Source: a virus (Duplodnaviria; Caudoviricetes). Taken from it: 40,149 nucleotides of DNA. Under the pieces are notes generated by a model. It was not told where the DNA came from, did not search any database, and saw only the letters and a list, made by a program, of their open reading frames with translations. The position numbers were made by a program, and so were the translations under genes. Every line of letters begins with the position of its first letter. Positions within the stretch are counted from its first letter, which is position 1. Positions 3,724 to 28,096 of the stretch are shown here, piece after piece. Where the stretch lies: the IMG/VR virus record IMGVR_UViG_3300012942_000082, positions 1-40,149 of that record. One strand, written 5' to 3'.

Positions 3724-4692
3724 ATGGCAGACCAACCACAAACAACAGAGGCAGAACGCGCACAGGCTGCGAGCGATGCCGCAGCAAAGGCAGCACAACT
3801 ATGGCAGGGAGATTTTGACGAAGCAGATCTCAGTATTCCTTATAAGCCACAGACTGTTAAGTCTGATGATGAGTCGGCTGAAGACGATAATGCAGACCAC
3901 ACCCATGATGGTGATGAACAGCCTGGTGAAGGTGACAATCCTAATAAACAGGACACAGTAGAGCCGGAACAATATGCTGAAGCATCGCAAGTTGTGACTG
4001 TGCAAGACCCCGGTGATTTCGTACCAGCTGATTATTCTTTTGAAGTCACATTAGCCAATGGTAAGACCGTGAAAGTATCTACCCCTGAACAGGCTGATGA
4101 GATTGCTGACAATGATGAGAACTTCGAGTCTACTAAGCAGTTGATGGATTTCATCAAGAAATCGAATAAGATGCAACGTCAGCTTGACCGTGACTACGAT
4201 AAATGGGAAGCACAAAAGCAAACCTTTGAACAGCAGAAAGCTGAAGAAGATGCGCGGATAGAAACCGTTAAGAATCTGGTTTCTGGTTTTGAGTACCTGG
4301 AATCAAAAGGCCGTCTACCTAAATTAACAGAGGAAGAACGGAATACAGATTGGACAAAGCTTGATGTATCTAAGCATCCGAATGTCAAAGCACATATGGA
4401 TTTAATTGAATACATGGAACGAGAGAACCAAATACGAGATAAAGCAGGTGTTCCACGTTTGAACTCTGCGCTTGATGCAATTAATGCCTATGACCTTGAT
4501 AATCGTGGCAAACAAGAAGATAACACCAAGAAAGCAGCCGGCGAAGCCAGGCGTGCAGCTGGTTCCCGTGTTGCTAGCCCAAGTGCAAGTAGCCAAGGCC
4601 AGTATGTACCGAAGGGCATTGCTGTTGGTCGTACTTTGAACTTCCGTGGCGGCCAAGATGCCTGGAACGCAGTTCTTGAGGCACAACAATAA
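3724..4692 (+). CDS. Putative capsid scaffolding protein
   Basis: Acidic N-terminus and coiled-coil core; between portal and capsid; SD AAAGGAG. Confidence 0.65.
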   Translation: MADQPQTTEAERAQAASDAAAKAAQLWQGDFDEADLSIPYKPQTVKSDDESAEDDNADHTHDGDEQPGEGDNPNKQDTVEPEQYAEASQVVTVQDPGDFVPADYSFEVTLANGKTVKVSTPEQADEIADNDENFESTKQLMDFIKKSNKMQRQLDRDYDKWEAQKQTFEQQKAEEDARIETVKNLVSGFEYLESKGRLPKLTEEERNTDWTKLDVSKHPNVKAHMDLIEYMERENQIRDKAGVPRLNSALDAINAYDLDNRGKQEDNTKKAAGEARRAAGSRVASPSASSQGQYVPKGIAVGRTLNFRGGQDAWNAVLEAQQ

Positions 4693-17991: not shown

Positions 17992-19995
17992 ATGACAAAG
18001 ACAACGATTAATGCATGGGTATACAGTAACTTTTCAGGTGGTCAGTCAACTGACAAGAAAACGGGTATAGCTAACTCATTTGCTGATAGCCAAAGTCTTG
18101 ATTTTCGTACCTCCCCGAGTCAGTTCAGTGTTCTACCCGCCACTCGGCGAGCTGATAATAATGTCGTAACCGACCTCGTGCAGAATGAAGTTATGACAGC
18201 AGATGGGACTATCTGGGCTATTGGGTCAGCAGGGAATGTATATCGGGTGAGTCCTACGGGCGTATGGAGTTTATTTGGCAATATAGGGTCAGCTGGTACA
18301 TTTGGGATAAACTGGCGGCAGGATCAGGATGCTATCTATATACCTGGTACAGATTCGGTAACTCAGATAGCTACGGTTTCGACTAATCCTACGCTACAAG
18401 TCAAGTATTATGGCCCGTCACAATCAACCTATGATAACTCTGATACTACTGGGTTCAATGTTAATTCAAATCAGAGTGGTAGCACTTCCACTACGGCCAT
18501 TCTAACTTCATATAGCGAAGGCATTACTACTCAAGAACGATTCTTCCAAACTGATGTTACTCCTATCTATAGCATAGGTGTTAATATAGTCAGTAAAGGG
18601 ACGGGTAACTGGACGCTGGTGGTGCACGATGGCTTCAATAATAAGCTGGGAAGCGTGACTATCAGTAATGCTAATCTGGTAAATGGCCAGTTCAATGAAT
18701 TTGTTTTCTCTACGCCTATTCAGATTAACAGCGCTACCTACAATCCAGCTTCAGAAACGACAGGTAGTAATGCGCAGACGTACCATTTTCATCTTACAAG
18801 TACGGTTGCCGATGGTACCATTAGTTCTACGACTACAAATGATCTTTCTACGGCTGATATGAACCTCTATGCCAGCCGGCTTATCAATACAAAGAATGGT
18901 ATCCATGTTCAAATGACCTTCCAGCAGTTTGAGTGTATAACCAATGGTCGGTATCTAAGTGTTTGGGAACCACTGGGTGACCCAACTCCTGATAACTCAG
19001 AGTGGGCACGTGAAGCGCTAACGTTTCCTCCAGGTTATGAAGGTTGCGGAGTAGCAGTATTCAACGAATACCTTGTCATCGCTGCGCAACTTACAGTAAC
19101 AGGTAACAATTCTGCTCAGCAGGGTATATTGTTTTACTGGGATGGACTAAGTTCAACCTATAACTACTTTACCCCTATTCCTGAGGGCTATCCTGAAAGC
19201 TTACATACTTACGAGAATGCCATTTATTTCGTAGCTGGCGGTAACTGGTACACTATTACCTCTGTTGCAGCCACTCCTCAGAAGATACGCCGCTTGCCTG
19301 GTACCGAAGACCAGTTTGTGGAGAGTAACCAAGTCAGCCATGTTTTCCCAAATATGGGTACTGTACGCTACGGTATTCACCTCTTAGGTTACCCGAGTAC
19401 TACCGCTAACCAGTCAATTCCATATGGTGTATATACGTGGGGTCAGACAGATACCACCCAGAATTACTCGTTTGGATACTCATATGTATTGAGTAACGGC
19501 TTGCAGCTTAATGATGGTACGAACAATCTTACGATTGGTATGGTTAAGAACTTCGGTAACATACTGCATATATCCTGGTCAGCAAGCGGCAAGTATGGGG
19601 TAGATATCGTTGATGCCAGTTCTAACCCAGCAAATTTTGCAAGTTGGGAATCACTTATTGAAGATAATGGATACCCATCTAAGCAAAAACTTGCTTCCTA
19701 TGTTGATGCCCACTGGCTACCTATTCAGGATGGTACCCAGATACGCCTCAAGTACTCACTCGATAGAGGAGATTGGGTATATTCACCGTATTACAGTAAT
19801 GCTAATCTTTGGCCAGTAGAAAACGAATCAGGATATGCCCGACTTGATATTGGTGACCCATCCGTAGAAGAGGCTCGTTTTTACGAGATACAGGTCGGGG
19901 TTGAAATATATAATGACAGTACAGTTACTGACACTCCTGTAGTAGTGGCTGTTAGCGTGCCATTTGATACATTAAATAACGAATTACCGATATGA
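17992..19995 (+). CDS. Tail nozzle / packaged DNA stabilisation protein
   Basis: N-terminal NFSGG; beta-propeller-like composition; follows the adaptor. Confidence 0.6.
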   Translation: MTKTTINAWVYSNFSGGQSTDKKTGIANSFADSQSLDFRTSPSQFSVLPATRRADNNVVTDLVQNEVMTADGTIWAIGSAGNVYRVSPTGVWSLFGNIGSAGTFGINWRQDQDAIYIPGTDSVTQIATVSTNPTLQVKYYGPSQSTYDNSDTTGFNVNSNQSGSTSTTAILTSYSEGITTQERFFQTDVTPIYSIGVNIVSKGTGNWTLVVHDGFNNKLGSVTISNANLVNGQFNEFVFSTPIQINSATYNPASETTGSNAQTYHFHLTSTVADGTISSTTTNDLSTADMNLYASRLINTKNGIHVQMTFQQFECITNGRYLSVWEPLGDPTPDNSEWAREALTFPPGYEGCGVAVFNEYLVIAAQLTVTGNNSAQQGILFYWDGLSSTYNYFTPIPEGYPESLHTYENAIYFVAGGNWYTITSVAATPQKIRRLPGTEDQFVESNQVSHVFPNMGTVRYGIHLLGYPSTTANQSIPYGVYTWGQTDTTQNYSFGYSYVLSNGLQLNDGTNNLTIGMVKNFGNILHISWSASGKYGVDIVDASSNPANFASWESLIEDNGYPSKQKLASYVDAHWLPIQDGTQIRLKYSLDRGDWVYSPYYSNANLWPVENESGYARLDIGDPSVEEARFYEIQVGVEIYNDSTVTDTPVVVAVSVPFDTLNNELPI

Positions 19996-20834
19996 GCACA
20001 CCTTACAAATTTACTGGTACACAGAACTATAAAGTCACGACACCGGGTATTGGCGGTGATTCTTTTTCAACGGATAGTAATCTTTCGCGCACATTACCCC
20101 GGCAGATGAGTACGGGTAGTACCAGGGGTACGCAAATAGTCGGATATGGTAATACGAAGATTGATGGTAGCAAGAATAGTATTACATTGGGTACGGGTAT
20201 CATCCTTGATGGAACAAATGAAATTATCACTGTAGAAAATAATAGTACCCCTGTTATTAATATTGGTAAAGATAAAAATAATGACTTTAATTTTAGAGTT
20301 GTCGATAAGAATAATGTTGGACTAGCTCAATTTGGGCAGTTTCCAGATGGTTCAATTGCTCTTAAGGTTGCACAATCTGGAGTTGAAGTTGCGACAGCAC
20401 AAGCCAACCAATTAGTATTCAGTAGTACATCAAGTTTTACAGTCTTAAAGCAATCAAGTTATACTTTTCCTTCTTTTGGGGCAGTACCAGCTGATACTCT
20501 TAATGGAGGTAGTTATACTACTATTGCTCATAACGCAGGGTTTGTTCCAAATGTTAACTGTTTTACCCCATTTGCTTTCTCGGGTGTTACATATGTAACG
20601 GCCCCAGCAGGTTTTCCCATATCATTACCTACATTTGTCACTTCTGGATCGGCTATTACACAGATATCGGGTGCCTCTGGGGATGCATTCTTTAACTTTT
20701 TCTGGTCTGTAGATTCCACTAATTTGTATTTAGGAGCTACATTTCAGAACTCTACTAGTTCTACTGTAACTGCGCTGCCTCTTACCATTAATTACACCAT
20801 ATTTGTCTTATCTGCTGTTAACCAAACCCAATAG
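19992..20834 (+). CDS. Tail-associated protein
   Basis: LKVAQSG.EV..A...LVFSS and IAHNAGFVP motifs. Confidence 0.55.
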   Translation: MSTPYKFTGTQNYKVTTPGIGGDSFSTDSNLSRTLPRQMSTGSTRGTQIVGYGNTKIDGSKNSITLGTGIILDGTNEIITVENNSTPVINIGKDKNNDFNFRVVDKNNVGLAQFGQFPDGSIALKVAQSGVEVATAQANQLVFSSTSSFTVLKQSSYTFPSFGAVPADTLNGGSYTTIAHNAGFVPNVNCFTPFAFSGVTYVTAPAGFPISLPTFVTSGSAITQISGASGDAFFNFFWSVDSTNLYLGATFQNSTSSTVTALPLTINYTIFVLSAVNQTQ

Positions 20835-21108
20835 ATTATATTATATATCCATCATGCTGCTGCTTCCCGAATGTACCCTTATGGCAAGTGGAAAAAGGGG
20901 AGGGGGTGTGGTATGGATGAGGAGTGTATTGCGGCAACAAGGATCAATACTTTTGAAGGTATACATTTACATACGTTTAGATTGCTTATGGTATGATTGT
21001 TAACAGAGACTAATGGAAGGAGTAGCGATGAGACCAAGCGAAACTTTTAAAATAAAAAATTATGTGTTATAATATGCATATGCATTTTCAACTTAGGATG
21101 GATTTCTG

Positions 21109-21360
21109 ATGCCAAACGAGCCCCTTAATAGACTTTCATTCTGGACTGTATTTTCACCCTCGGTAGATGGTTCTATACGCCTTGATCATGACTTGATTGT
21201 CAATGGTGCGCGTTTTCCGACCGGGAGTATTATTAACCCAGGACAATTTATGGCTGGTATTGATATTATTAAGCGCAAAGGTACGGATCTAGCGGTAGCT
21301 AATTCTGTGGATGGGGCTTATATCTTGCGAGGATTCTACTTGCCTGATGGACAACAGTAA
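21109..21360 (+). CDS. Accessory hypothetical protein
   Basis: Downstream of an extended -10 TGTTATAAT at about 21065-21073. Confidence 0.55.
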   Translation: MPNEPLNRLSFWTVFSPSVDGSIRLDHDLIVNGARFPTGSIINPGQFMAGIDIIKRKGTDLAVANSVDGAYILRGFYLPDGQQ

Positions 21361-21772
21361 GCAAACCAAGGGCGCAACTAAGCGCAAAAAGAAATCTGAC
21401 GCTATAGTTACGTCATCCGCACCAAGGGCCCCTATAGTCAATCAGCCTCAAGGCATAATCATTACTACCGCTGAGGCAGGCGCAGATGACCTTGAGGATA
21501 AAGTTAATGCCCTGACGGCACGCCTGGATAAAGAAGTAGACAAGCGTCATAGTGAGCAGAGAAATATTTTTATAGGTGTCCTTCTAGCTGTCGTGCTAAT
21601 TGTTGCTAGTGTCGCAGTAGAGGTGATTATTTTTAACGCGTCGTTTAGCGACAATCTAGATAAGTACAATCAACAAGAGGATCAAGATTATAGAAGCCTT
21701 CGTGATGCCATCGATAACAATCAGCAATCTACGACACAACAGTTATTACAATTAAAATCATCAAATCTTTAG
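21347..21772 (+). CDS. Accessory single-pass membrane protein
   Basis: Hydrophobic stretch IFIGVLLAVVLIVASVAVEVIIF flanked by coiled coils; probable start at ATG 21347. Confidence 0.6.
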   Translation: MDNSKQTKGATKRKKKSDAIVTSSAPRAPIVNQPQGIIITTAEAGADDLEDKVNALTARLDKEVDKRHSEQRNIFIGVLLAVVLIVASVAVEVIIFNASFSDNLDKYNQQEDQDYRSLRDAIDNNQQSTTQQLLQLKSSNL

Positions 21773-21782
21773 AAATGTCTAA

Positions 21783-22793
21783 TTACGCCCTCAACACATC
21801 ATCCAGCCATGTCACGGGCCTCGGCTTCTCACGGACGAGCAGCCATGGCAATAATGCCTGTAGGCTAGCCGGCCAGTCGTAGCTTAGTATTTCCTCATCC
21901 GGTGTCCGGTAGACCAGGTAGATGCCCCGTACGAGCGTAGCGAGCCCCTCTGGAGCCACATCACAGGCTCGAGCAATCAAGTCCTGGAAGACCACACTAC
22001 TGTTGCGGTTGTAGTGGAAGACGAACTCATCGACATAGTGCTGCAGATACTTCTGGCTGACCGTATGGTACGTACCGGTCATGGAGTTCTTTAGGAGTGA
22101 CCAGATACCCTCTATGGTATTCGTATGGACTTCTCCAGCGTGGTAGGTCATCGGGAAGTGACGCACGGTCTTATGGTCAAAGCGAGCTGCCAGGTGGCTA
22201 TAGACATTACTCTCGTCTGTTACAATGTCGGTTCCGACAGCTACCCGCTGGGCAAAGAAATCCGTTATGAACTGCCGGTTAGGCTGCCGCATGACCTTTA
22301 CCATGGCCGCCCCACCACGCTCTACCGCACCGGTTACCATGACTTTGTTACTGTAGCGTTTCTTCGGGGAACGGCGACCACCTACATAGGCAGCATCTGC
22401 TTCTACGGTGCCACTGAACATATGGGTATCCTGGTACATGAGAGACCGTATCCGATTAGCCATCCGCCAGGCAGTCTTATAGGTAACACCTAAGTGTCGT
22501 TCCAGTTCTTTGGCAGCTACACCGTTCTTCGAGACGGAGAAGATATACATGGCATAGAACCAATACCATATGCTGGTACTCGACTTATGGAAGATGGTAT
22601 CTGCTAGTGGGTAGATGTGCTCCCCACAGGCACTGCAGACATATGCCTTACGGTTGGTGATCTTGTAGAACTTAACACCCACTGAGCCACAGTCGGGGCA
22701 GGTAGATTGGTAGCGGGCGAGGAGGATTTCACGCAAGCAAGCATCATCGTTGGGGTAAGCTTTTCTGAACTGCTTGAAGGTGTATTTATTCAC
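21783..22793 (-). CDS. IS1595-family (ISXO2-like) DDE transposase with C-terminal extension
   Basis: CPDC..CSAC zinc ribbon, TIFHKS, LGVTYKTAWRM HTH, VEAD, VTD, HTNTIEG..LK, YLQ.Y.DEF.F.YN. Probable GTG start at 22793 behind TTGTTC-17-TACAAT. Confidence 0.9.
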   Translation of the reverse strand: MNKYTFKQFRKAYPNDDACLREILLARYQSTCPDCGSVGVKFYKITNRKAYVCSACGEHIYPLADTIFHKSSTSIWYWFYAMYIFSVSKNGVAAKELERHLGVTYKTAWRMANRIRSLMYQDTHMFSGTVEADAAYVGGRRSPKKRYSNKVMVTGAVERGGAAMVKVMRQPNRQFITDFFAQRVAVGTDIVTDESNVYSHLAARFDHKTVRHFPMTYHAGEVHTNTIEGIWSLLKNSMTGTYHTVSQKYLQHYVDEFVFHYNRNSSVVFQDLIARACDVAPEGLATLVRGIYLVYRTPDEEILSYDWPASLQALLPWLLVREKPRPVTWLDDVLRA

Positions 22794-22848
22794 CTTATAT
22801 TGTAACAAATTAACAGAGGTAGAACAAGGGTTCTATGTACTTTATTTT

Positions 22849-22877
22849 TTGACACTCTTAATAAGCCTCCGTATAAT
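22849..22877 (+). promoter_or_regulatory. Perfect consensus sigma70 promoter with no downstream + strand gene
   Basis: TTGACA-17-TATAAT. Confidence 0.85.
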
Positions 22878-22882
22878 TGGGG

Positions 22883-22920
22883 GTATAAGGAGCCCTGGTT
22901 TTCGGAGGGCTTTTTTATTT
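22883..22920 (+). ncRNA. Candidate small RNA 1 (late-element-like hairpin, element 3)
   Basis: AGCCCT-ggttttcgg-AGGGCT-TTTTT directly after the consensus promoter; complementary to the - strand RNA at 23427-23453; a second 9-bp hairpin follows at 22925-22951. Confidence 0.65.
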
Positions 22921-22968
22921 TGTATGTAGGCTTTTTTTCGTTAAGCCTACAGCGACTTGTCCGTAAAC

Positions 22969-22990
22969 AAAAAACCGCCCACTGGGCGGC
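22969..22990 (-). terminator. Intrinsic terminator for the 23024-23332 gene
   Basis: CCGCCC-agt-GGGCGG followed by TTTTTT on the - strand. Confidence 0.75.
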
Positions 22991-23023
22991 TTATCGCATA
23001 AGCAGTATAGTACAGAACTGCTT

Positions 23024-23332
23024 CTAGCAGAAGTACTCAAGTGGCCCTGAGGCAGCCTCAGTGCAGTTAATGGTGACATCGTCATCAGGGCTGTTACAGA
23101 CCATGCCAACACTATTCTTTACCTTCTGGGGTATACAGGTATAGGCACTTGAACGGTTCGGGTTAAATTCCGGGTAGTGGTTGATAACTGATGTGTGCCG
23201 TTCAATCTTAACTTGCTGGGGCTTGTTGTCATACAAGGTGTGGTAGTGAACTGCTACTCTCGTAGCAATGCCACACAGTAGCAGTAATACGGCTATAACG
23301 GGCAGAAGGATTGTTTCAGATAGTCGGGTCAT
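23024..23332 (-). CDS. Membrane-anchored Cys-containing protein
   Basis: N-terminal TM helix, four C-terminal Cys; SD GGAG. Confidence 0.65.
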   Translation of the reverse strand: MTRLSETILLPVIAVLLLLCGIATRVAVHYHTLYDNKPQQVKIERHTSVINHYPEFNPNRSSAYTCIPQKVKNSVGMVCNSPDDDVTINCTEAASGPLEYFC

Positions 23333-23344
23333 TTATTTCTCCAT

Positions 23345-23478
23345 AAATAAGAAAGCAGCCATCGCTGGCTGTCTAGACCTTTCAAAGCAGGGGAATACCC
23401 AACTAGGAGCGATGACTGCTTCCAAAGGGTATAAAAAAGCCCTGCTCTTCGAACTGTCTAGACAATGTTATTATACCA
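23345..23478 (-). promoter_or_regulatory. Promoter and structured two-state leader RNA
   Basis: Extended -10 TGGTATAAT (23478-23470); long hairpin 23464-23370 interleaved with a 14-bp stem (23421-23408/23366-23353) plus U-rich tract. Confidence 0.7.
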
Positions 23479-23485
23479 TATAGAT

Positions 23486-23629
23486 ATGGATATTGGTAAA
23501 TGTCTGTACTGTAAGGAAGAGAAAGAACTGAGAAAATACTCAGTTATAAATCCACTTACTGGAGAAGTAGTTGGTTCAAATATCATGTGCGAGGATTGTG
23601 CTGGACTACTGCCGTATCAAGAAGACTGA
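23486..23629 (+). CDS. 47-aa zinc-finger microprotein (not in ORF track)
   Basis: MDIGKCLYCKEEKELRKYSVINPLTGEVVGSNIMCEDCAGLLPYQED; extended -10 TGTTATTAT at 23466-23474. Confidence 0.6.
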   Translation: MDIGKCLYCKEEKELRKYSVINPLTGEVVGSNIMCEDCAGLLPYQED

Positions 23630-23807
23630 TAGCCTCGAAGTGGTCATCTTTCCGATATAGACGGTAGGGCTGGAAATCGTTCTTAGTAACTAGGAGAAGT
23701 GCTATACCCCCGTTACTGGTATGAATGGTTATATGTATATTCCCATCTTCGCCAATGAATGCGCTTATATCCTTCTTTGCTGAACTGCCTACTACCTCTG
23801 TCCGCAC
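23583..23807 (-). CDS. Hypothetical protein
   Basis: SD GAAAGGA and TGGTAAAAT upstream; its 3' end overlaps the zinc-finger ORF. Confidence 0.45.
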   Translation of the reverse strand: MRTEVVGSSAKKDISAFIGEDGNIHITIHTSNGGIALLLVTKNDFQPYRLYRKDDHFEAISLLDTAVVQHNPRT

Positions 23808-23861
23808 TACTGTTCCTTTCTTGTTCTTACGGGATAGGGGGGTGCTTTCTTAATTTTACCA

Positions 23862-23967
23862 GAAAAAGAAAAAACCTGGATTAACCAGGTATGTTTTTCT
23901 TGTCTAGACAACCCACGAATGAATCGTGTTACATATAAATACTAGCACGTAGTAACAGATATGTCAA
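23862..23967 (-). ncRNA. Promoter and candidate small RNA 2 (~65 nt) with terminator
   Basis: TTGACA-17-TAGTAT, 5' hairpin CACGA-ttcat-TCGTG, GGTTGTCTAGACAA seed, terminator ACCTGG-ttaat-CCAGGT-TTTTT. Confidence 0.6.
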
Positions 23968-24185
23968 CTAAGCATTCGTCTAAGTTCGGGTGACAGATTC
24001 TGTGCTTGCTCTGGATAGACCTTATAGTAGTCTACTTGGTTCGGTTGCAGCATCTCAGCTCTATAACGTACCCTTTGGTCTTCTCGGCTCGCTCTAGCAG
24101 CTGTTTCATTAGGATGGAGCGTTGGAGCATGTTCATCAATATAGACAATCCTGCCATTAACGATTCTGGCGATATTCTTACTCAT
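23964..24185 (-). CDS. Hypothetical protein
   Basis: Coupled downstream in the groES-groEL operon. Confidence 0.6.
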   Translation of the reverse strand: MSKNIARIVNGRIVYIDEHAPTLHPNETAARASREDQRVRYRAEMLQPNQVDYYKVYPEQAQNLSPELRRMLS

Positions 24186-24418
24186 GATGGTGGGTTCAAC
24201 TTCTTCATTAACTTTTCCCTTTCATATATGGCTTCCTGTATGGGGTCTAGCGGGTCTATGAGCATACTCTTTGGCTCTTCCTCTACAGGTATATCTACTT
24301 TATTGTGTACCGCTTGTTCTAATTCCGCAAGCTTCTTCATGATGCCACGAACAAAGTACCCAAGACTAAAGGCTCCTATAAGTGAGATAGCCCATACGGG
24401 GATGAGCCAGTAGAGCAT
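24182..24418 (-). CDS. Small membrane-anchored protein
   Basis: N-terminal TM helix; TAATG coupling to groEL. Confidence 0.6.
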   Translation of the reverse strand: MLYWLIPVWAISLIGAFSLGYFVRGIMKKLAELEQAVHNKVDIPVEEEPKSMLIDPLDPIQEAIYEREKLMKKLNPPS

Positions 24419-26088
24419 TATTTCTCCATGTCTTCAAAGACTAAGGCTAAACCAGTTTTAATCGTCTCAGCAGCCATACCAGTAGCATGCGTAATTGCTT
24501 CACGTACGACGACATATGGGTCTGCTATGCCAGCCTTTAGGACATCTACTAGCTCAGCTGATTCTTTAAGATTGTAACCGTGGCCTTTCCTGGCATTTAA
24601 TGCTTTATCTAATAGCAACTCTGCTTTATTAGGATATGCATTGCTAAGTAATTTCTTGAAAGTCGAACGAAGAGCATTGCAAGTTATGTTAGTAATTGCC
24701 GGTACATTTATAAGTTTTCCCTCTGATTTAAATGACTTACTTAATCCCTCTTCCATTGCATGTTCTAGCATATTTTCTTCAACAGCAGTAAGTTTTAATT
24801 CCTTATTATCTGCAAGTTTACTAAGCTCTAGCAGTGTCACGCCCCCACCAGGCACAATACCTTCAGCATACGCATGTCGTGTAGAGTTGATAGCGTCTTC
24901 AATACGGAATTCAGTCTCTTCTCTCGTAGAATCAGTCGCACCACCAATCTTAAAGATTGCAATCTTACCTTCTAACTTCGCTACTCTGTCACGTAGTTTC
25001 TCGGCAATTGCTGGTGTTTCCTCAGCAGCTAGTTGGTCTTTAATTTCGGTGATACGGGTAATAACAGCTTCGCTCTTATTGTCACCAAATAGGGTAGCAT
25101 CTGACTTACTAGCGACGACTTTATCTACGGTACCAATGTAGTTGGCGTTAAATTGCTTCAAGCTGGTAGTCTCAGTAATCAGGTCACAGCCAGTATATAG
25201 GGCGATATCGTCGAGGAGGTATTTGCCGAGTTCACCATACATAGGTGGGGTCTTAATGATGACTGCATCTATCTGTCCAGCATTGACGGTATTCACAATA
25301 GTGGTATAGGCCTGGTCTTCAATGTTCCCGATAAAGACAATACGTGGTATCTGACCTTGTTTGACGAACTTAGCTTCTACGGTCTTATTCAGGAGCTCAA
25401 TGGCATCCGCACTGGAGGTAAGCCGCTTAGCTGACACGATAATGAATGGGTCTATTAACTCTTTCTTACCGGCCTGAAGTGCAGTAAAGCCAGACTGTAA
25501 GTAGTAGCCATCGACATACTCCCGTTCAATTTCAGCGATTGGTGCTTTCTCAGTAAGGATGCCGCCATCTGGGCCGACATAGAGGATGGCGTCAGCAATC
25601 AGCTGACCAATCAGTGCGTCACCAGCTGATACGGTTGCAACGTCCTTTAGATTTTCATCTTTGACAGGGATGACTTCTGATTTTAGTGCCTCTAATAGTA
25701 CATGGCTATCTTTAATAATTATATCGCTGACATCCATGGGGTGATGCCCAGCAGCAATCGCTTTTACACCATTCTCAAGCAGGTGGTATGTCAGTACGGA
25801 GGTAACGGTTGACCCATCACCACTGATATTATTTGCTGCTCGCGATGCTTCTGCGAGAGCTTGCATACCAATGTTTTCTACTCGGTCTGAACTGAATACC
25901 TGTTCTACAATAGTCACACCGTCACGAGTATAAGTAGGACGGCCAAAGCCTCTTTCTACGATGACGTTCTTACCTTTCGGGCCATATGTGACTGATACTG
26001 CATCATATGCCTTTTTAGCACCTTGCATGACCCGAGCACGTAGTTCATCTTCCGGTATTACTAATCTACCTTCTTTTTTTTCTGCCAT
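24418..26088 (-). CDS. groEL: Phage chaperonin GroEL (Cpn60)-like
   Basis: TYGPKG.NV, TRDGVTI, GDGSTV, KIGGAT, RIEDA, GIVPGGG and GIADP motifs. Confidence 0.95.
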   Translation of the reverse strand: MAEKKEGRLVIPEDELRARVMQGAKKAYDAVSVTYGPKGKNVIVERGFGRPTYTRDGVTIVEQVFSSDRVENIGMQALAEASRAANNISGDGSTVTSVLTYHLLENGVKAIAAGHHPMDVSDIIIKDSHVLLEALKSEVIPVKDENLKDVATVSAGDALIGQLIADAILYVGPDGGILTEKAPIAEIEREYVDGYYLQSGFTALQAGKKELIDPFIIVSAKRLTSSADAIELLNKTVEAKFVKQGQIPRIVFIGNIEDQAYTTIVNTVNAGQIDAVIIKTPPMYGELGKYLLDDIALYTGCDLITETTSLKQFNANYIGTVDKVVASKSDATLFGDNKSEAVITRITEIKDQLAAEETPAIAEKLRDRVAKLEGKIAIFKIGGATDSTREETEFRIEDAINSTRHAYAEGIVPGGGVTLLELSKLADNKELKLTAVEENMLEHAMEEGLSKSFKSEGKLINVPAITNITCNALRSTFKKLLSNAYPNKAELLLDKALNARKGHGYNLKESAELVDVLKAGIADPYVVVREAITHATGMAAETIKTGLALVFEDMEK

Positions 26089-26091
26089 AGA

Positions 26092-26466
26092 TTACTCCAA
26101 GTTAAAGGCACCTGCGCTGCCTGTTTGATCAATTATCTGAATATCTGCGTCTAGATCGTCTGTCCAACCGATGATGTCTGACATATTCAACAAAACAAAT
26201 TCCTCATCACCTTCTTTGAACATACGTCCTCTGTCTTGTAATGCCTCCCAGAACACAATCTTTCCCTCTAATTTCTTATAAAATTGTTGTACTTTCTGAA
26301 GTACATCGAGGTTACCGATAGTATTATCTGCTAAGAATGAGTGAAAACCGAAGTAAATCATATCATCTGGCACCTTCGTCACAACTCCGCTTACTCTACC
26401 ACTTGCGGACCCTCCGAATCTCTTGGTTTCGATTTTAACTTTAATCTTATCGTTAAATGGTTCCAT
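26092..26466 (-). CDS. groES: Divergent co-chaperonin GroES (Cpn10)-like
   Basis: MEPFNDKIKVK (PL.DRV.V-like), G.V..V, EEFVLLNMSDIIG; immediately upstream of groEL; SD GGAGG. Confidence 0.7.
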   Translation of the reverse strand: MEPFNDKIKVKIETKRFGGSASGRVSGVVTKVPDDMIYFGFHSFLADNTIGNLDVLQKVQQFYKKLEGKIVFWEALQDRGRMFKEGDEEFVLLNMSDIIGWTDDLDADIQIIDQTGSAGAFNLE

Positions 26467-26484
26467 TATTTATTCCTCCAATCC

Positions 26485-26592
26485 AAAAAAGCCGCTACCA
26501 GACCGCTGAGCCTTGGTAACGGCATTATTACATTCGAGAATCTCAGCGGTCATCACAATGGTTAATGTACCAGCTTGCAATACAAAACACAA
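26485..26592 (-). promoter_or_regulatory. groES promoter and attenuator-like leader
   Basis: TTGTGT-17-TACATT; two interleaved 10-bp stems; U6 tract before the SD. Confidence 0.7.
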
Positions 26593-26640
26593 GCATATAT
26601 CATTGCAGTAGGAATAAGCCCTACTGGGGCTTTTTTATTT
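26575..26640 (+). promoter_or_regulatory. Promoter plus promoter-proximal terminator (late element 4, before endolysin)
   Basis: TTGCAA-17-TATCAT, then GTAGGAAT AAGCCC-tactg-GGGCTT TTTTATTT. Confidence 0.75.
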
Positions 26641-26650
26641 AAGGAAATAT

Positions 26651-28096
26651 ATGAGCGTAACACAAACAGATGCGGTTAACTGGCTCAATTATCAAGTTGG
26701 CCAGCATCTCGATTATGACCACCTATATGGTCAACAGTGCGTTGATTTCTTCAACTTCTATTATCAGTACGTAACAGGAGATAGTCCCTATAATGACGGA
26801 TATAGCGTTCCATCTGCAGCCGACATATGGAATATTGCTAACAGCCGCTTTACAAAGATTCCAGATAGTAATTCACTAGTTCCGCAGCCAGGTGACATTG
26901 CGGTATATGGAACTGCTTGGGGTGCAGGTAACGGGCATGTAGAGGTCGTACTTTCTACTGATGGTAATGGCTGTACCTTTGTAGGTGAGAATGAACATAA
27001 CAACACTACTGAAGGTGTTGTAAAAGTATCCCGTACGTGGGCACAGATGCGTGGACTGCTTGGTGTGCTTCGATTTTCATGGTCAGTACCAGTTGCTACG
27101 CCACCCCCACCAGTTTATACGGTTATTGAGACATATAACCCTGTTATACAGGTAAAAACGAACAAACAACCGACCACGATGTGGGGTATGAACTATGGCA
27201 CTTTTAATGCCATGGAAGCTAATCCCATAAAGACAGTTAGTGAAGGGACTATCCTGACTATTGTTGAGAAGCTGCAACATGTCACAGGCGGCCAGTACTA
27301 CCGTGAACCTAACAATGTCGATGCCTGGAACGTACTAGACTGTGACCCCTATACCCCACCACCTACACCATACGTACCACCTGCAGCCCCTGTTCCAATC
27401 AAAAAGGCAGAGCAATATGAAGTATTCACGACACTTCCCTACTATGCATCCGCTGATGATACCGCCCAGTCCAAAAATCAGGTAGGGACAATAGCGCCAG
27501 GCACTTACTACGTCTGGAACAAACAGGGTACTAATAACAACTACTGGGATTTGTCGATCAGCAATACCACCGATCAGGGCATGTGGATTAACACTACACT
27601 TAATAAGAAGCCATTAAATGTTCCGGTACCAACACCGACCGTTCCTGAGGAACAAGCTGAGGCTACACCACCGGCAGAAACAGCCGCAGACGTACGGGCA
27701 AGCTTCCGACCATTCTTCCCAGACGGCTCACCGATATCATGCCAAGTAGTACAGACATTCCTCCTCACTGACCGCTTAGGGCCTGGCGATAACATCACGG
27801 TCAATAAGGTGCGTAAGACCGGTAAACCAAATGTCATTCATATCTATGGCACCTTCATGCAAGGTGGGAAGCCATGGGCGCTTGTACGTGTTGCAGATGA
27901 CCCACAACCAGCACCAGGTCTTCCCTACTACTTCTACGGCATACCGATTACCCACGCCATGCCAGATGCAAGCCTCGGGCCTTTCCTGATTGAAGTTGAC
28001 CCACTGAAAGACCGCTTGCGTTACTACGGTGAATACCTATATGATAAAGCTGTACAGACCATAGACGGTATATTTAAGAAAAAAACTAAAAAATAA
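26651..28096 (+). CDS. Endolysin, N-terminal CHAP domain plus Pro-linked putative binding domains
   Basis: YGQQCVDF, PQPGDIAVY, NGHV and GENE motifs. Confidence 0.85.
   Translation: MSVTQTDAVNWLNYQVGQHLDYDHLYGQQCVDFFNFYYQYVTGDSPYNDGYSVPSAADIWNIANSRFTKIPDSNSLVPQPGDIAVYGTAWGAGNGHVEVVLSTDGNGCTFVGENEHNNTTEGVVKVSRTWAQMRGLLGVLRFSWSVPVATPPPPVYTVIETYNPVIQVKTNKQPTTMWGMNYGTFNAMEANPIKTVSEGTILTIVEKLQHVTGGQYYREPNNVDAWNVLDCDPYTPPPTPYVPPAAPVPIKKAEQYEVFTTLPYYASADDTAQSKNQVGTIAPGTYYVWNKQGTNNNYWDLSISNTTDQGMWINTTLNKKPLNVPVPTPTVPEEQAEATPPAETAADVRASFRPFFPDGSPISCQVVQTFLLTDRLGPGDNITVNKVRKTGKPNVIHIYGTFMQGGKPWALVRVADDPQPAPGLPYYFYGIPITHAMPDASLGPFLIEVDPLKDRLRYYGEYLYDKAVQTIDGIFKKKTKK

Follow-up and report, generated by a model that had tools for sequence, protein, structure and literature searches.

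A promoter with no gene behind it, in a phage contig of 40,149 bases that was analyzed whole (hereafter the window), likely produces a hairpin RNA of about 35 nt, and this predicted tiny RNA is complementary to the 5' arm of a structured leader that precedes a membrane-protein gene. The leader is the best-supported part of the system, with sequence and covariation placing it in an attenuator family that has no Rfam entry, and folding models suggest that it is a two-state terminator/antiterminator switch that is OFF by default. We tentatively favor, at a little under an even chance, the reading that the tiny RNA binds the 5' arm of the leader during transcription and switches the membrane-protein gene on. 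The sign of this predicted effect is probably opposite to the silencing proposed in the initial annotation of the locus. The features concerned are as follows.

22849..22877, plus strand: consensus sigma70-type promoter (12/12 match) that is followed by no gene and stands back to back with the transposase promoter.
22883..22921, plus strand: predicted tiny RNA of ~35-39 nt, from folding and co-folding, with a start inferred at 22883-22885.
22972..22992, minus strand: terminator of the membrane-protein gene, separating the gene from the tiny RNA.
23024..23332, minus strand: 102-aa protein that has four cysteines and a single hydrophobic helix at its N terminus; searches found no homologue.
23339..23342, minus strand: ribosome-binding site, which co-folding predicts to be paired in the OFF state but unpaired in the ON state.
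23345..23371, minus strand: intrinsic terminator with stem 23371-23356 and a U-rich tail.
23371..23400, minus strand: 3' arm of the long hairpin.
23408..23423, minus strand: 5' strand of the antiterminator, predicted to pair with 23366-23351 if the 5' arm is blocked.
23427..23463, minus strand: 5' arm of the long hairpin (anti-antiterminator), with a U-rich bulge at 23439-23433 and the tiny RNA target at 23453-23427.
23345..23463, minus strand: the whole attenuator leader, a member of a Saccharibacteria-wide RNA family by fold, homology and covariation.
23470..23478, minus strand: leader promoter, an extended -10 with predicted +1 at G23463; homologues have a similar -10 box.

The initial annotation described a perfect TTGACA-17-TATAAT promoter on the plus strand, and the site at 22849-22877 indeed matches at 12/12 positions, is gene-less and has a hairpin behind it; it is the only 12/12 site within 19000-28000. 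The predicted transcript has a short 5' end, a hairpin (22887-22896/22906-22915) with a 9-nt loop and a U tail, and alone it folds at -12.6 (z -2.2), with most of its pairing strand locked inside its own hairpin. In the leaders studied here we take +1 to be the seventh base after the -10 box, and the same rule presumably places the start of the tiny RNA at T22884, with both neighbors possible. A promoter this strong would suit the capture of a nascent RNA. A further hairpin lacking a U tail (22922-22948) lies between the terminators of the tiny RNA and the membrane-protein gene, and a -10-like box ~15 bases ahead of the gene's terminator could make another tiny RNA (23032-22965, minus strand). 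The search with the 102-aa protein returned only the protein itself, with no family and no usable Atlas match.

The minus-strand promoter annotated ahead of the leader was recovered as the extended -10 at 23478-23470, and in homologues a -10 box recurs 5-6 nt ahead of the first helix. The leader it would produce (23463-23345, minus strand) is highly structured (-48.2 kcal/mol, z -4.55, 0/200 shuffles as good), and the target of the tiny RNA is, as annotated, the 5' arm of its long hairpin. Folded alone, the leader forms the long hairpin from +1 and then the intrinsic terminator, which is located between the leader promoter and the gene. An alternative helix of 16-17 bp (23423-23408/23366-23351) removes the terminator, and a helix of such length arose in 5/2000 shuffles. 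When the tiny RNA was placed on the 5' arm in co-folding, this antiterminator won and the ribosome-binding site opened: antiterminator probability rose from 0.0 for the leader alone to 1.0 for tiny RNAs starting at 22881-22883, 0.81 for a start at 22884 and 0.68 for a start at 22885. Comparison with shuffled controls, a check proposed in the initial annotation, showed that 2/150 shuffled RNAs flip the leader. The gain from binding the finished leader is -4.5 kcal/mol for a start at 22883 and -1.5 for a start at 22885, and for a nascent leader of 25 nt it is -9.8 kcal/mol at any start site, all folding here being equilibrium prediction at 37 C. Since the terminator is the default fold and pairing with the 5' arm is predicted to free both the antiterminator and the ribosome-binding site, the tiny RNA would activate. 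The role suggested for the RNA in the initial annotation, switching the leader to its terminator fold and silencing the gene, is at odds with the co-fold, which predicts activation of a leader whose terminator is already the default.

Three GTCTAGAC palindromes were also considered as operators, and this was rejected for two of them, which are covarying ends of the basal helix. The third (23902) matches the helix/terminator junction of the leader over 12 bp, and similar junction matches across 49 leaders showed no enrichment (7 vs 4 in the control). This palindrome lies in a separate candidate transcription unit (23967-23867, minus strand) with a promoter-like site at the stop of a 73-aa gene, a stretch of ~65 nt and a terminator, and its RNA likewise flips the leader on co-folding (-4.6 kcal/mol). 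On the plus strand, 23486-23629 holds a 47-aa frame with two CxxC pairs and no Pfam match, preceded by a possible extended -10 that overlaps the leader promoter on the opposite strand.

In the activation model, a leader with no partner would bury its antiterminator strand in the long hairpin, the terminator would form and transcription would stop at about nt 117. The tiny RNA would catch the nascent leader while its 5' arm is free, which the folding series puts between about nt 37 and nt 70-95, and the occupied arm would leave the antiterminator to form and the ribosome-binding site to open. The same nascent pairing could also be read as silencing through a split terminator, in which the tiny RNA enters by its loop, supplies a missing strand and releases the transcript at about nt 33 as a second lock; this would keep the sign given in the initial annotation, and we regard it as improbable. 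In the 5' arm a GC-rich strand runs into a U tract (7/8 U follow), with no partner strand in cis, and the gain on the 25-nt leader is independent of the start. Oligonucleotides can reportedly mimic terminator hairpins in trans, a result ascribed to Yarnell and Roberts. The available text of PMC3993855 offers no evidence for such an effect in trans beyond a cited title on antisense-stimulated pausing. However, the leader is already OFF by default, the 5' end of the tiny RNA complements bases at or beyond the U tract that would then be inside the polymerase, and the U tract recurs in leaders that have no partner.

The complementarity itself was confirmed largely as annotated: 22881-22906 and 23427-23453 differ by five substitutions, of which three are A>G, one is C>T and one is C>G, and the 26/27-nt match contains one gap. 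It begins at the predicted +1 of the tiny RNA promoter and ends in the hairpin loop. By a pairing score that is G-U-aware, the window pair scores 47, and among windows of 2.69 Mb of unselected fetched DNA used as background, none reach 47 and eight reach 40. Among 315 distinct terminator hairpins, the tiny RNA ranks at the top with 41, the runner-up scoring 33.5, and among 33 terminators sharing the GGG(C)TTTT arm the best after the tiny RNA scores 28. The tiny RNA also ranks its own leader first among 50 family members. The pairing covers positions at which close homologues differ, and the six closest homologous leaders are not opened by the tiny RNA (gain 0 to -0.8 kcal/mol), so that the match is to this copy of the leader. 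On these sequence comparisons the complementarity is real and specific to its own leader, and such a copy-specific match fits co-adaptation and recent local duplication alike.

Several measures of the match were less favorable. When 5335 windows are ranked by raw duplex energy, the target comes only 9th if the RNA starts at 22883 and falls outside the top 12 if it starts at 22885, and the pairing score is 40 from 22883 and 36 from 22885. The core of the match is a common terminator word, the five viral matches to its 19-mer are all ordinary terminator arms, and loci chosen by the core word score 34-49.5. Four leaders that lack a local partner also contain the target core, and a viral pattern search for hairpins like the tiny RNA gave 19 matches, all of them ordinary terminators with weaker partners. 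The initial annotation had argued for selection on RNA pairing from the direction of the four transitions, which preserve G-U pairs; this argument is weak (p about 0.095), and two of the four transitions also serve the tiny RNA's own hairpin.

Taken at face value, these points allow a reading with no functional pairing at all, in which the leader is opened by some signal common to the whole family, be it a protein, the speed of transcription or a foreign RNA, the tiny hairpin is a left-over cassette or an insulator, and the likeness comes from a short local duplication and the common terminator word. We think this possible, though rather doubtful. The frequency of the motif in terminators and the modest G-U bias fit it, and duplication accounts for the specificity as well as selection does; the decay of the element's ends (see below) also points this way. 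On the other hand, the match runs from the predicted +1 of an intact 12/12 promoter into the loop, where it ends, tops the 315 terminators and lies on the one arm that flips the switch when it is blocked.

The leader belongs to a family whose members could be followed well beyond this locus. A nhmmer search detected a homologue beside a related transposase in the phage locus L039 (E 1.9e-7), and the two leaders differ by compensatory changes in both folds. A pattern search in 401 genomes of the class of Saccharibacteria, which are ultra-small bacteria, gave 8 matches and its backwards control 7, so the count alone is no proof; the folds supply it, since a long hairpin, a terminator and an antiterminator, none of which the pattern contains, are present in all 8. 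When trained on the window and L039 leaders alone, a model recovered five of the 8 at E below 1e-4. With a ten-sequence model, the leader was found in 32/151 genomes of the class (four of them training genomes), 73/151 genomes in one family and 12/151 genomes in a phylum-wide sample; misses are weak evidence, because model R1 missed one known member genome-wide. A viral leader-pattern search gave 14 matches, of which only the known L039 contig was real. Given ten homologues, RNAalifold picked the antiterminator as the consensus unprompted. Compensatory changes were seen in 5/9 antiterminator pairs and in 12/16 pairs of the basal helix and terminator, counts that lean toward the model because the 5/9 structure was predicted from the same alignment and the 12/16 alignment was fitted to the model. 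Of 49 leaders, 47 favor the terminator alone, 41 favor the antiterminator with 38 nt blocked and 39 do both. In a few of the loci analyzed (L263, L264, L267, L278b, L282b and L378), script parsing misplaced the leader start. The leader had no match in Rfam, where the window region gave none at E up to 5. Neither it, the pair nor the tRNA-antisense cassettes described below are reported in the accessible literature, and supplements of RNA-motif surveys could hold the leader.

Leaders lie ahead of a gene in 46/50 cases. Downstream frames carry a predicted membrane helix in 31/46, compared to 146/474 longer frames in one genome, and the families behind leaders include DUF4352, DUF805, DUF4190 and TM2, with four frames encoding serine recombinases. 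A subtype of the leader heads large serine recombinases, and in three genomes a membrane-gene leader stands back to back with it at a distance of about 3 kb. The loci concerned are as follows.

L277, 7538-7675 and 10585-10732: locus with the recombinase leader subtype.
L278, 7764-7905 and 11054-11188: locus with the recombinase leader subtype.
L282, 7976-8114 and 11159-11303: locus with the recombinase leader subtype.
L280, 6936-7071: locus with the recombinase leader subtype.

Conservation of the pairing at homologous loci, whose lack the initial annotation named as refuting its proposal, was absent within the fetched DNA: at about 78 other distinct leaders (in overlapping sets), with flanks of 1.5-10 kb or more per side, no comparable partner was found, and the best 5'-arm scores were 25.5-42.5. 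By set, these were 32-39 at 8 loci of 12-22 kb, 27-38.5 at 26 short loci (among matches listed), 29-42.5 for 31 leaders in 8-20 kb, 25.5-40.5 for six leaders, 26-39 for 21 of 23, and 35-38.5 for the six closest. Scans of whole contigs reached 45 in the 710-kb G131 and 44 in 331 kb of G158, neither of them a promoter-hairpin RNA, and a promoter-position search in 5 genomes gave 13 matches and no cognate RNA. The L039 locus has an RNA of similar form in the same slot, for which its own leader ranks 5th by energy and 17th by score of 50, and 46/500 shuffles are as good. These searches covered mostly incomplete genomes and one viral homologue, so a partner may lie elsewhere, but most members of the leader family must be opened by something other than a neighboring tiny RNA. 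The lack of a partner at the ~78 homologues speaks for the reading without functional pairing.

The locus probably lies within the remains of a mobile element. The contig, whose best-matching sequencing run is a soil metagenome, encodes a terminase, a P22-like portal, GroEL and a CHAP lysin, as expected for a tailed phage, and the tiny RNA and leader sit in a variable stretch that is absent from phage relatives. The features of the element are as follows.

21783..22793, minus strand: IS1595-family transposase, by Pfam PF12762/PF12760 and relatives.
20866..20890, plus strand: degenerate IS1595 end on one side, with 14 nt identical to the end in L117.
23818..23842, minus strand: degenerate IS1595 end on the other side, a weak sequence remnant.

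The transposase has its own promoter (TTGTTC-17-TACAAT at 22827-22799, minus strand) and is probably leaderless. Because its closest matches among named genomes are from Saccharibacteria, the host of the phage is presumably a Saccharibacterium. In related elements (L039, L117, L119, L120, L178 and L266) the inverted repeats and target duplication are clear, and clear inverted ends enclose transposase and cargo, whereas the window retains only remnants of the ends and no clean target duplication; the region is probably a decayed cargo-carrying IS1595 element. Single queries of IMG/VR with the membrane protein, transposase and GroEL found no homologue, INPHARED gave no relative, and contigs from two DNA runs gave no sequence variants. 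In phage relatives, reached via the 73-aa gene, the leader was absent from the loci and records searched. At the same place in a related phage (L007, 8220-9460), a direct repeat of ~53 nt flanks an insertion with a gene for a membrane-anchored protein. A GroES-like gene, GroEL and two small genes (23964-26466, minus strand) form a block retained in related phages of ~41 kb. Immediately before the lysin gene of the window lies a hairpin with two alternative pairings and a U tract (26600-26650, plus strand).

Relatives of the element carry RNAs of the same build as the tiny RNA. In the fetched loci, 66 promoter-plus-hairpin candidates were found, eight of which have an exact repeat of 11-13 bases within 2 kb, and in 7/8 the repeat lies ~100 bases downstream inside a tRNA-like gene on the opposite strand. 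Another 29 transposase loci gave 12 candidates and added L345, L354 and, by eye, L347. This makes ten cases of a tiny RNA antisense to a tRNA-like gene (L105, two in L117, L119, L120, L178, L240/L266, L345, L347 and L354), in which the odd tRNA-like gene has an anticodon arm that the RNA complements exactly; an extra case found by inspection in L039 (4063-4130 with 4141-4226) is directed against the long arm of a tRNA whose anticodon is CTT. Some of the targeted tRNAs have four-base anticodons, and the body of some seems unfit for the anticodon; such pairs are candidates for a miscoding-tRNA toxin with an RNA antitoxin. In L117, L119, L120 and L178 the cassette occupies the same slot as the window RNA, divergent from the transposase. 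L119 (2490-2660, plus strand) and L039 (2685-2790, plus strand) also have, immediately within the left end of the element, a further gene-less promoter with a structured stretch of 100-150 nt and a terminator.

The ten cases indicate that the IS1595 lineage does make antisense RNAs of such build, and the sister cassettes, which are likewise short copies of their targets and are recurrent, weigh against the reading without functional pairing. The window cassette matches the leader rather than a tRNA-like gene, the window has no tRNA gene, and the neighboring tiny RNAs of the tRNA-type pairs do not match their leaders. We infer that the tiny RNA may be an antisense cassette of this lineage, here matched to the element's own leader, and that the phage would thereby bypass whatever signal opens such leaders elsewhere. 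A stronger version, a natural small transcription-activating RNA from a retargetable promoter-guide-terminator cassette that is normally aimed at miscoding tRNA-like RNAs and was re-aimed to unlock a lineage-wide attenuator, is conceivable but on the unlikely side. The sister cassettes can also be turned toward a sponge, in which the active molecule would be the ~117-nt leader RNA left by termination, and the tiny RNA would attach to its U bulge and so neutralize or destroy it. The sisters target finished, stable RNAs and may act thus on tRNA-like RNAs, and the U bulge is an open toehold; however, the energy gain on the finished leader is small, and the covarying antiterminator and the place before a gene in 46/50 point to a role in cis, and we consider the sponge very unlikely. 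Returning to activation, the co-fold flip, the family-wide effect of blocking the 5' arm, the covariation of the antiterminator, the specificity of the pairing and the sisters of the same build count for it, and the lack of a partner at ~78 leaders, the small gain on the finished leader, the strand locked in its own hairpin and the dependence on start site count against it.

The predicted system was compared with known regulators. Engineered small transcription-activating RNAs (STARs) act in trans to prevent an intrinsic terminator, according to the available text of PMC10877136 and bioRxiv 10.1101/055327. From what these sources describe, STARs and the window RNA share a default OFF state turned ON by RNA and joint control of terminator and ribosome-binding site, but STARs bind the terminator itself, whereas the window RNA would bind ~70 nt farther upstream and set free an antiterminator that the leader itself contains. 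In the portions available of the 2024 review (PMC10877136), a natural form of such activation is described as 'waiting to be discovered' in B. subtilis.

The pT181 attenuator is controlled by a cis-encoded, fully complementary antisense RNA that represses, and in T-boxes a tRNA acting in trans favors the antiterminator. As in pT181, on a mobile element according to the part of 10.1101/055327 that treats it, a short antisense RNA would capture a nascent leader and decide between terminator and antiterminator, but the window RNA is encoded ~550 nt away, is imperfectly complementary and is a predicted activator. The likeness to T-boxes, which appear in a table of PMC10877136, is a natural RNA in trans favoring the antiterminator at an intrinsic terminator; the window leader differs in having no specifier loop, T-box sequence or Rfam match, its partner is not a tRNA, and the genes behind such leaders encode membrane proteins and recombinases.

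The initial annotation had compared the locus to P4 CI and P1 C4 RNAs and to type I toxin-antitoxin systems, and neither comparison survives the predicted direction of control or the form of the RNA. The C4 RNA of P1/P7 is a phage antisense RNA acting in trans on leader termination, and the window region had no match to the C4 family in Rfam. Type I toxins are small and hydrophobic, usually under 60 aa, and antitoxin pairing represses them. The locus resembles such systems in that a small RNA converges on a membrane-protein gene whose leader is highly folded, but the window RNA and the mRNA do not overlap, recombinases also lie behind homologous leaders, the pairing is predicted to activate, and the 102-aa protein, with its soluble cysteine-bearing domain, does not look like a type I toxin from its sequence. 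P4 CI, too, is an antisense RNA of a phage that affects termination in a leader in trans, but the relevant text of PMC4825925 has CI processed from its own target transcript, using two sites and causing termination, whereas the window RNA is a single hairpin that has a promoter to itself and one target site, and the sign predicted for it is the opposite. For the sister cassettes only, allo-tRNAs offer a likeness as odd tRNAs on mobile elements, some toxic by mistranslation, and the word 'antisense' is absent from the main text of PMC5389517, the source of this description. A review of small RNAs and termination (PMC6582626) covers, in the text available, effects on Rho-dependent termination, and Saccharibacteria are now genetically tractable, as stated in the accessible part of PMC10633639.

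Engineered STARs show that a small RNA can activate an intrinsic attenuator in trans, and this locus is a predicted natural candidate, with the complete candidate system in under 700 bases. The tiny RNA is the first candidate trigger found for a common, uncatalogued Saccharibacteria leader that precedes genes for membrane proteins and for serine recombinases on mobile DNA. Even if the pairing in the window is idle, the leader family and the pairs of tiny RNAs and tRNA-like genes stand. If the stronger version with a retargetable cassette is true, the variable 5' arm would be an RNA-sensing lock, and other leaders of the family may await RNA keys from elsewhere, for example from incoming phages.
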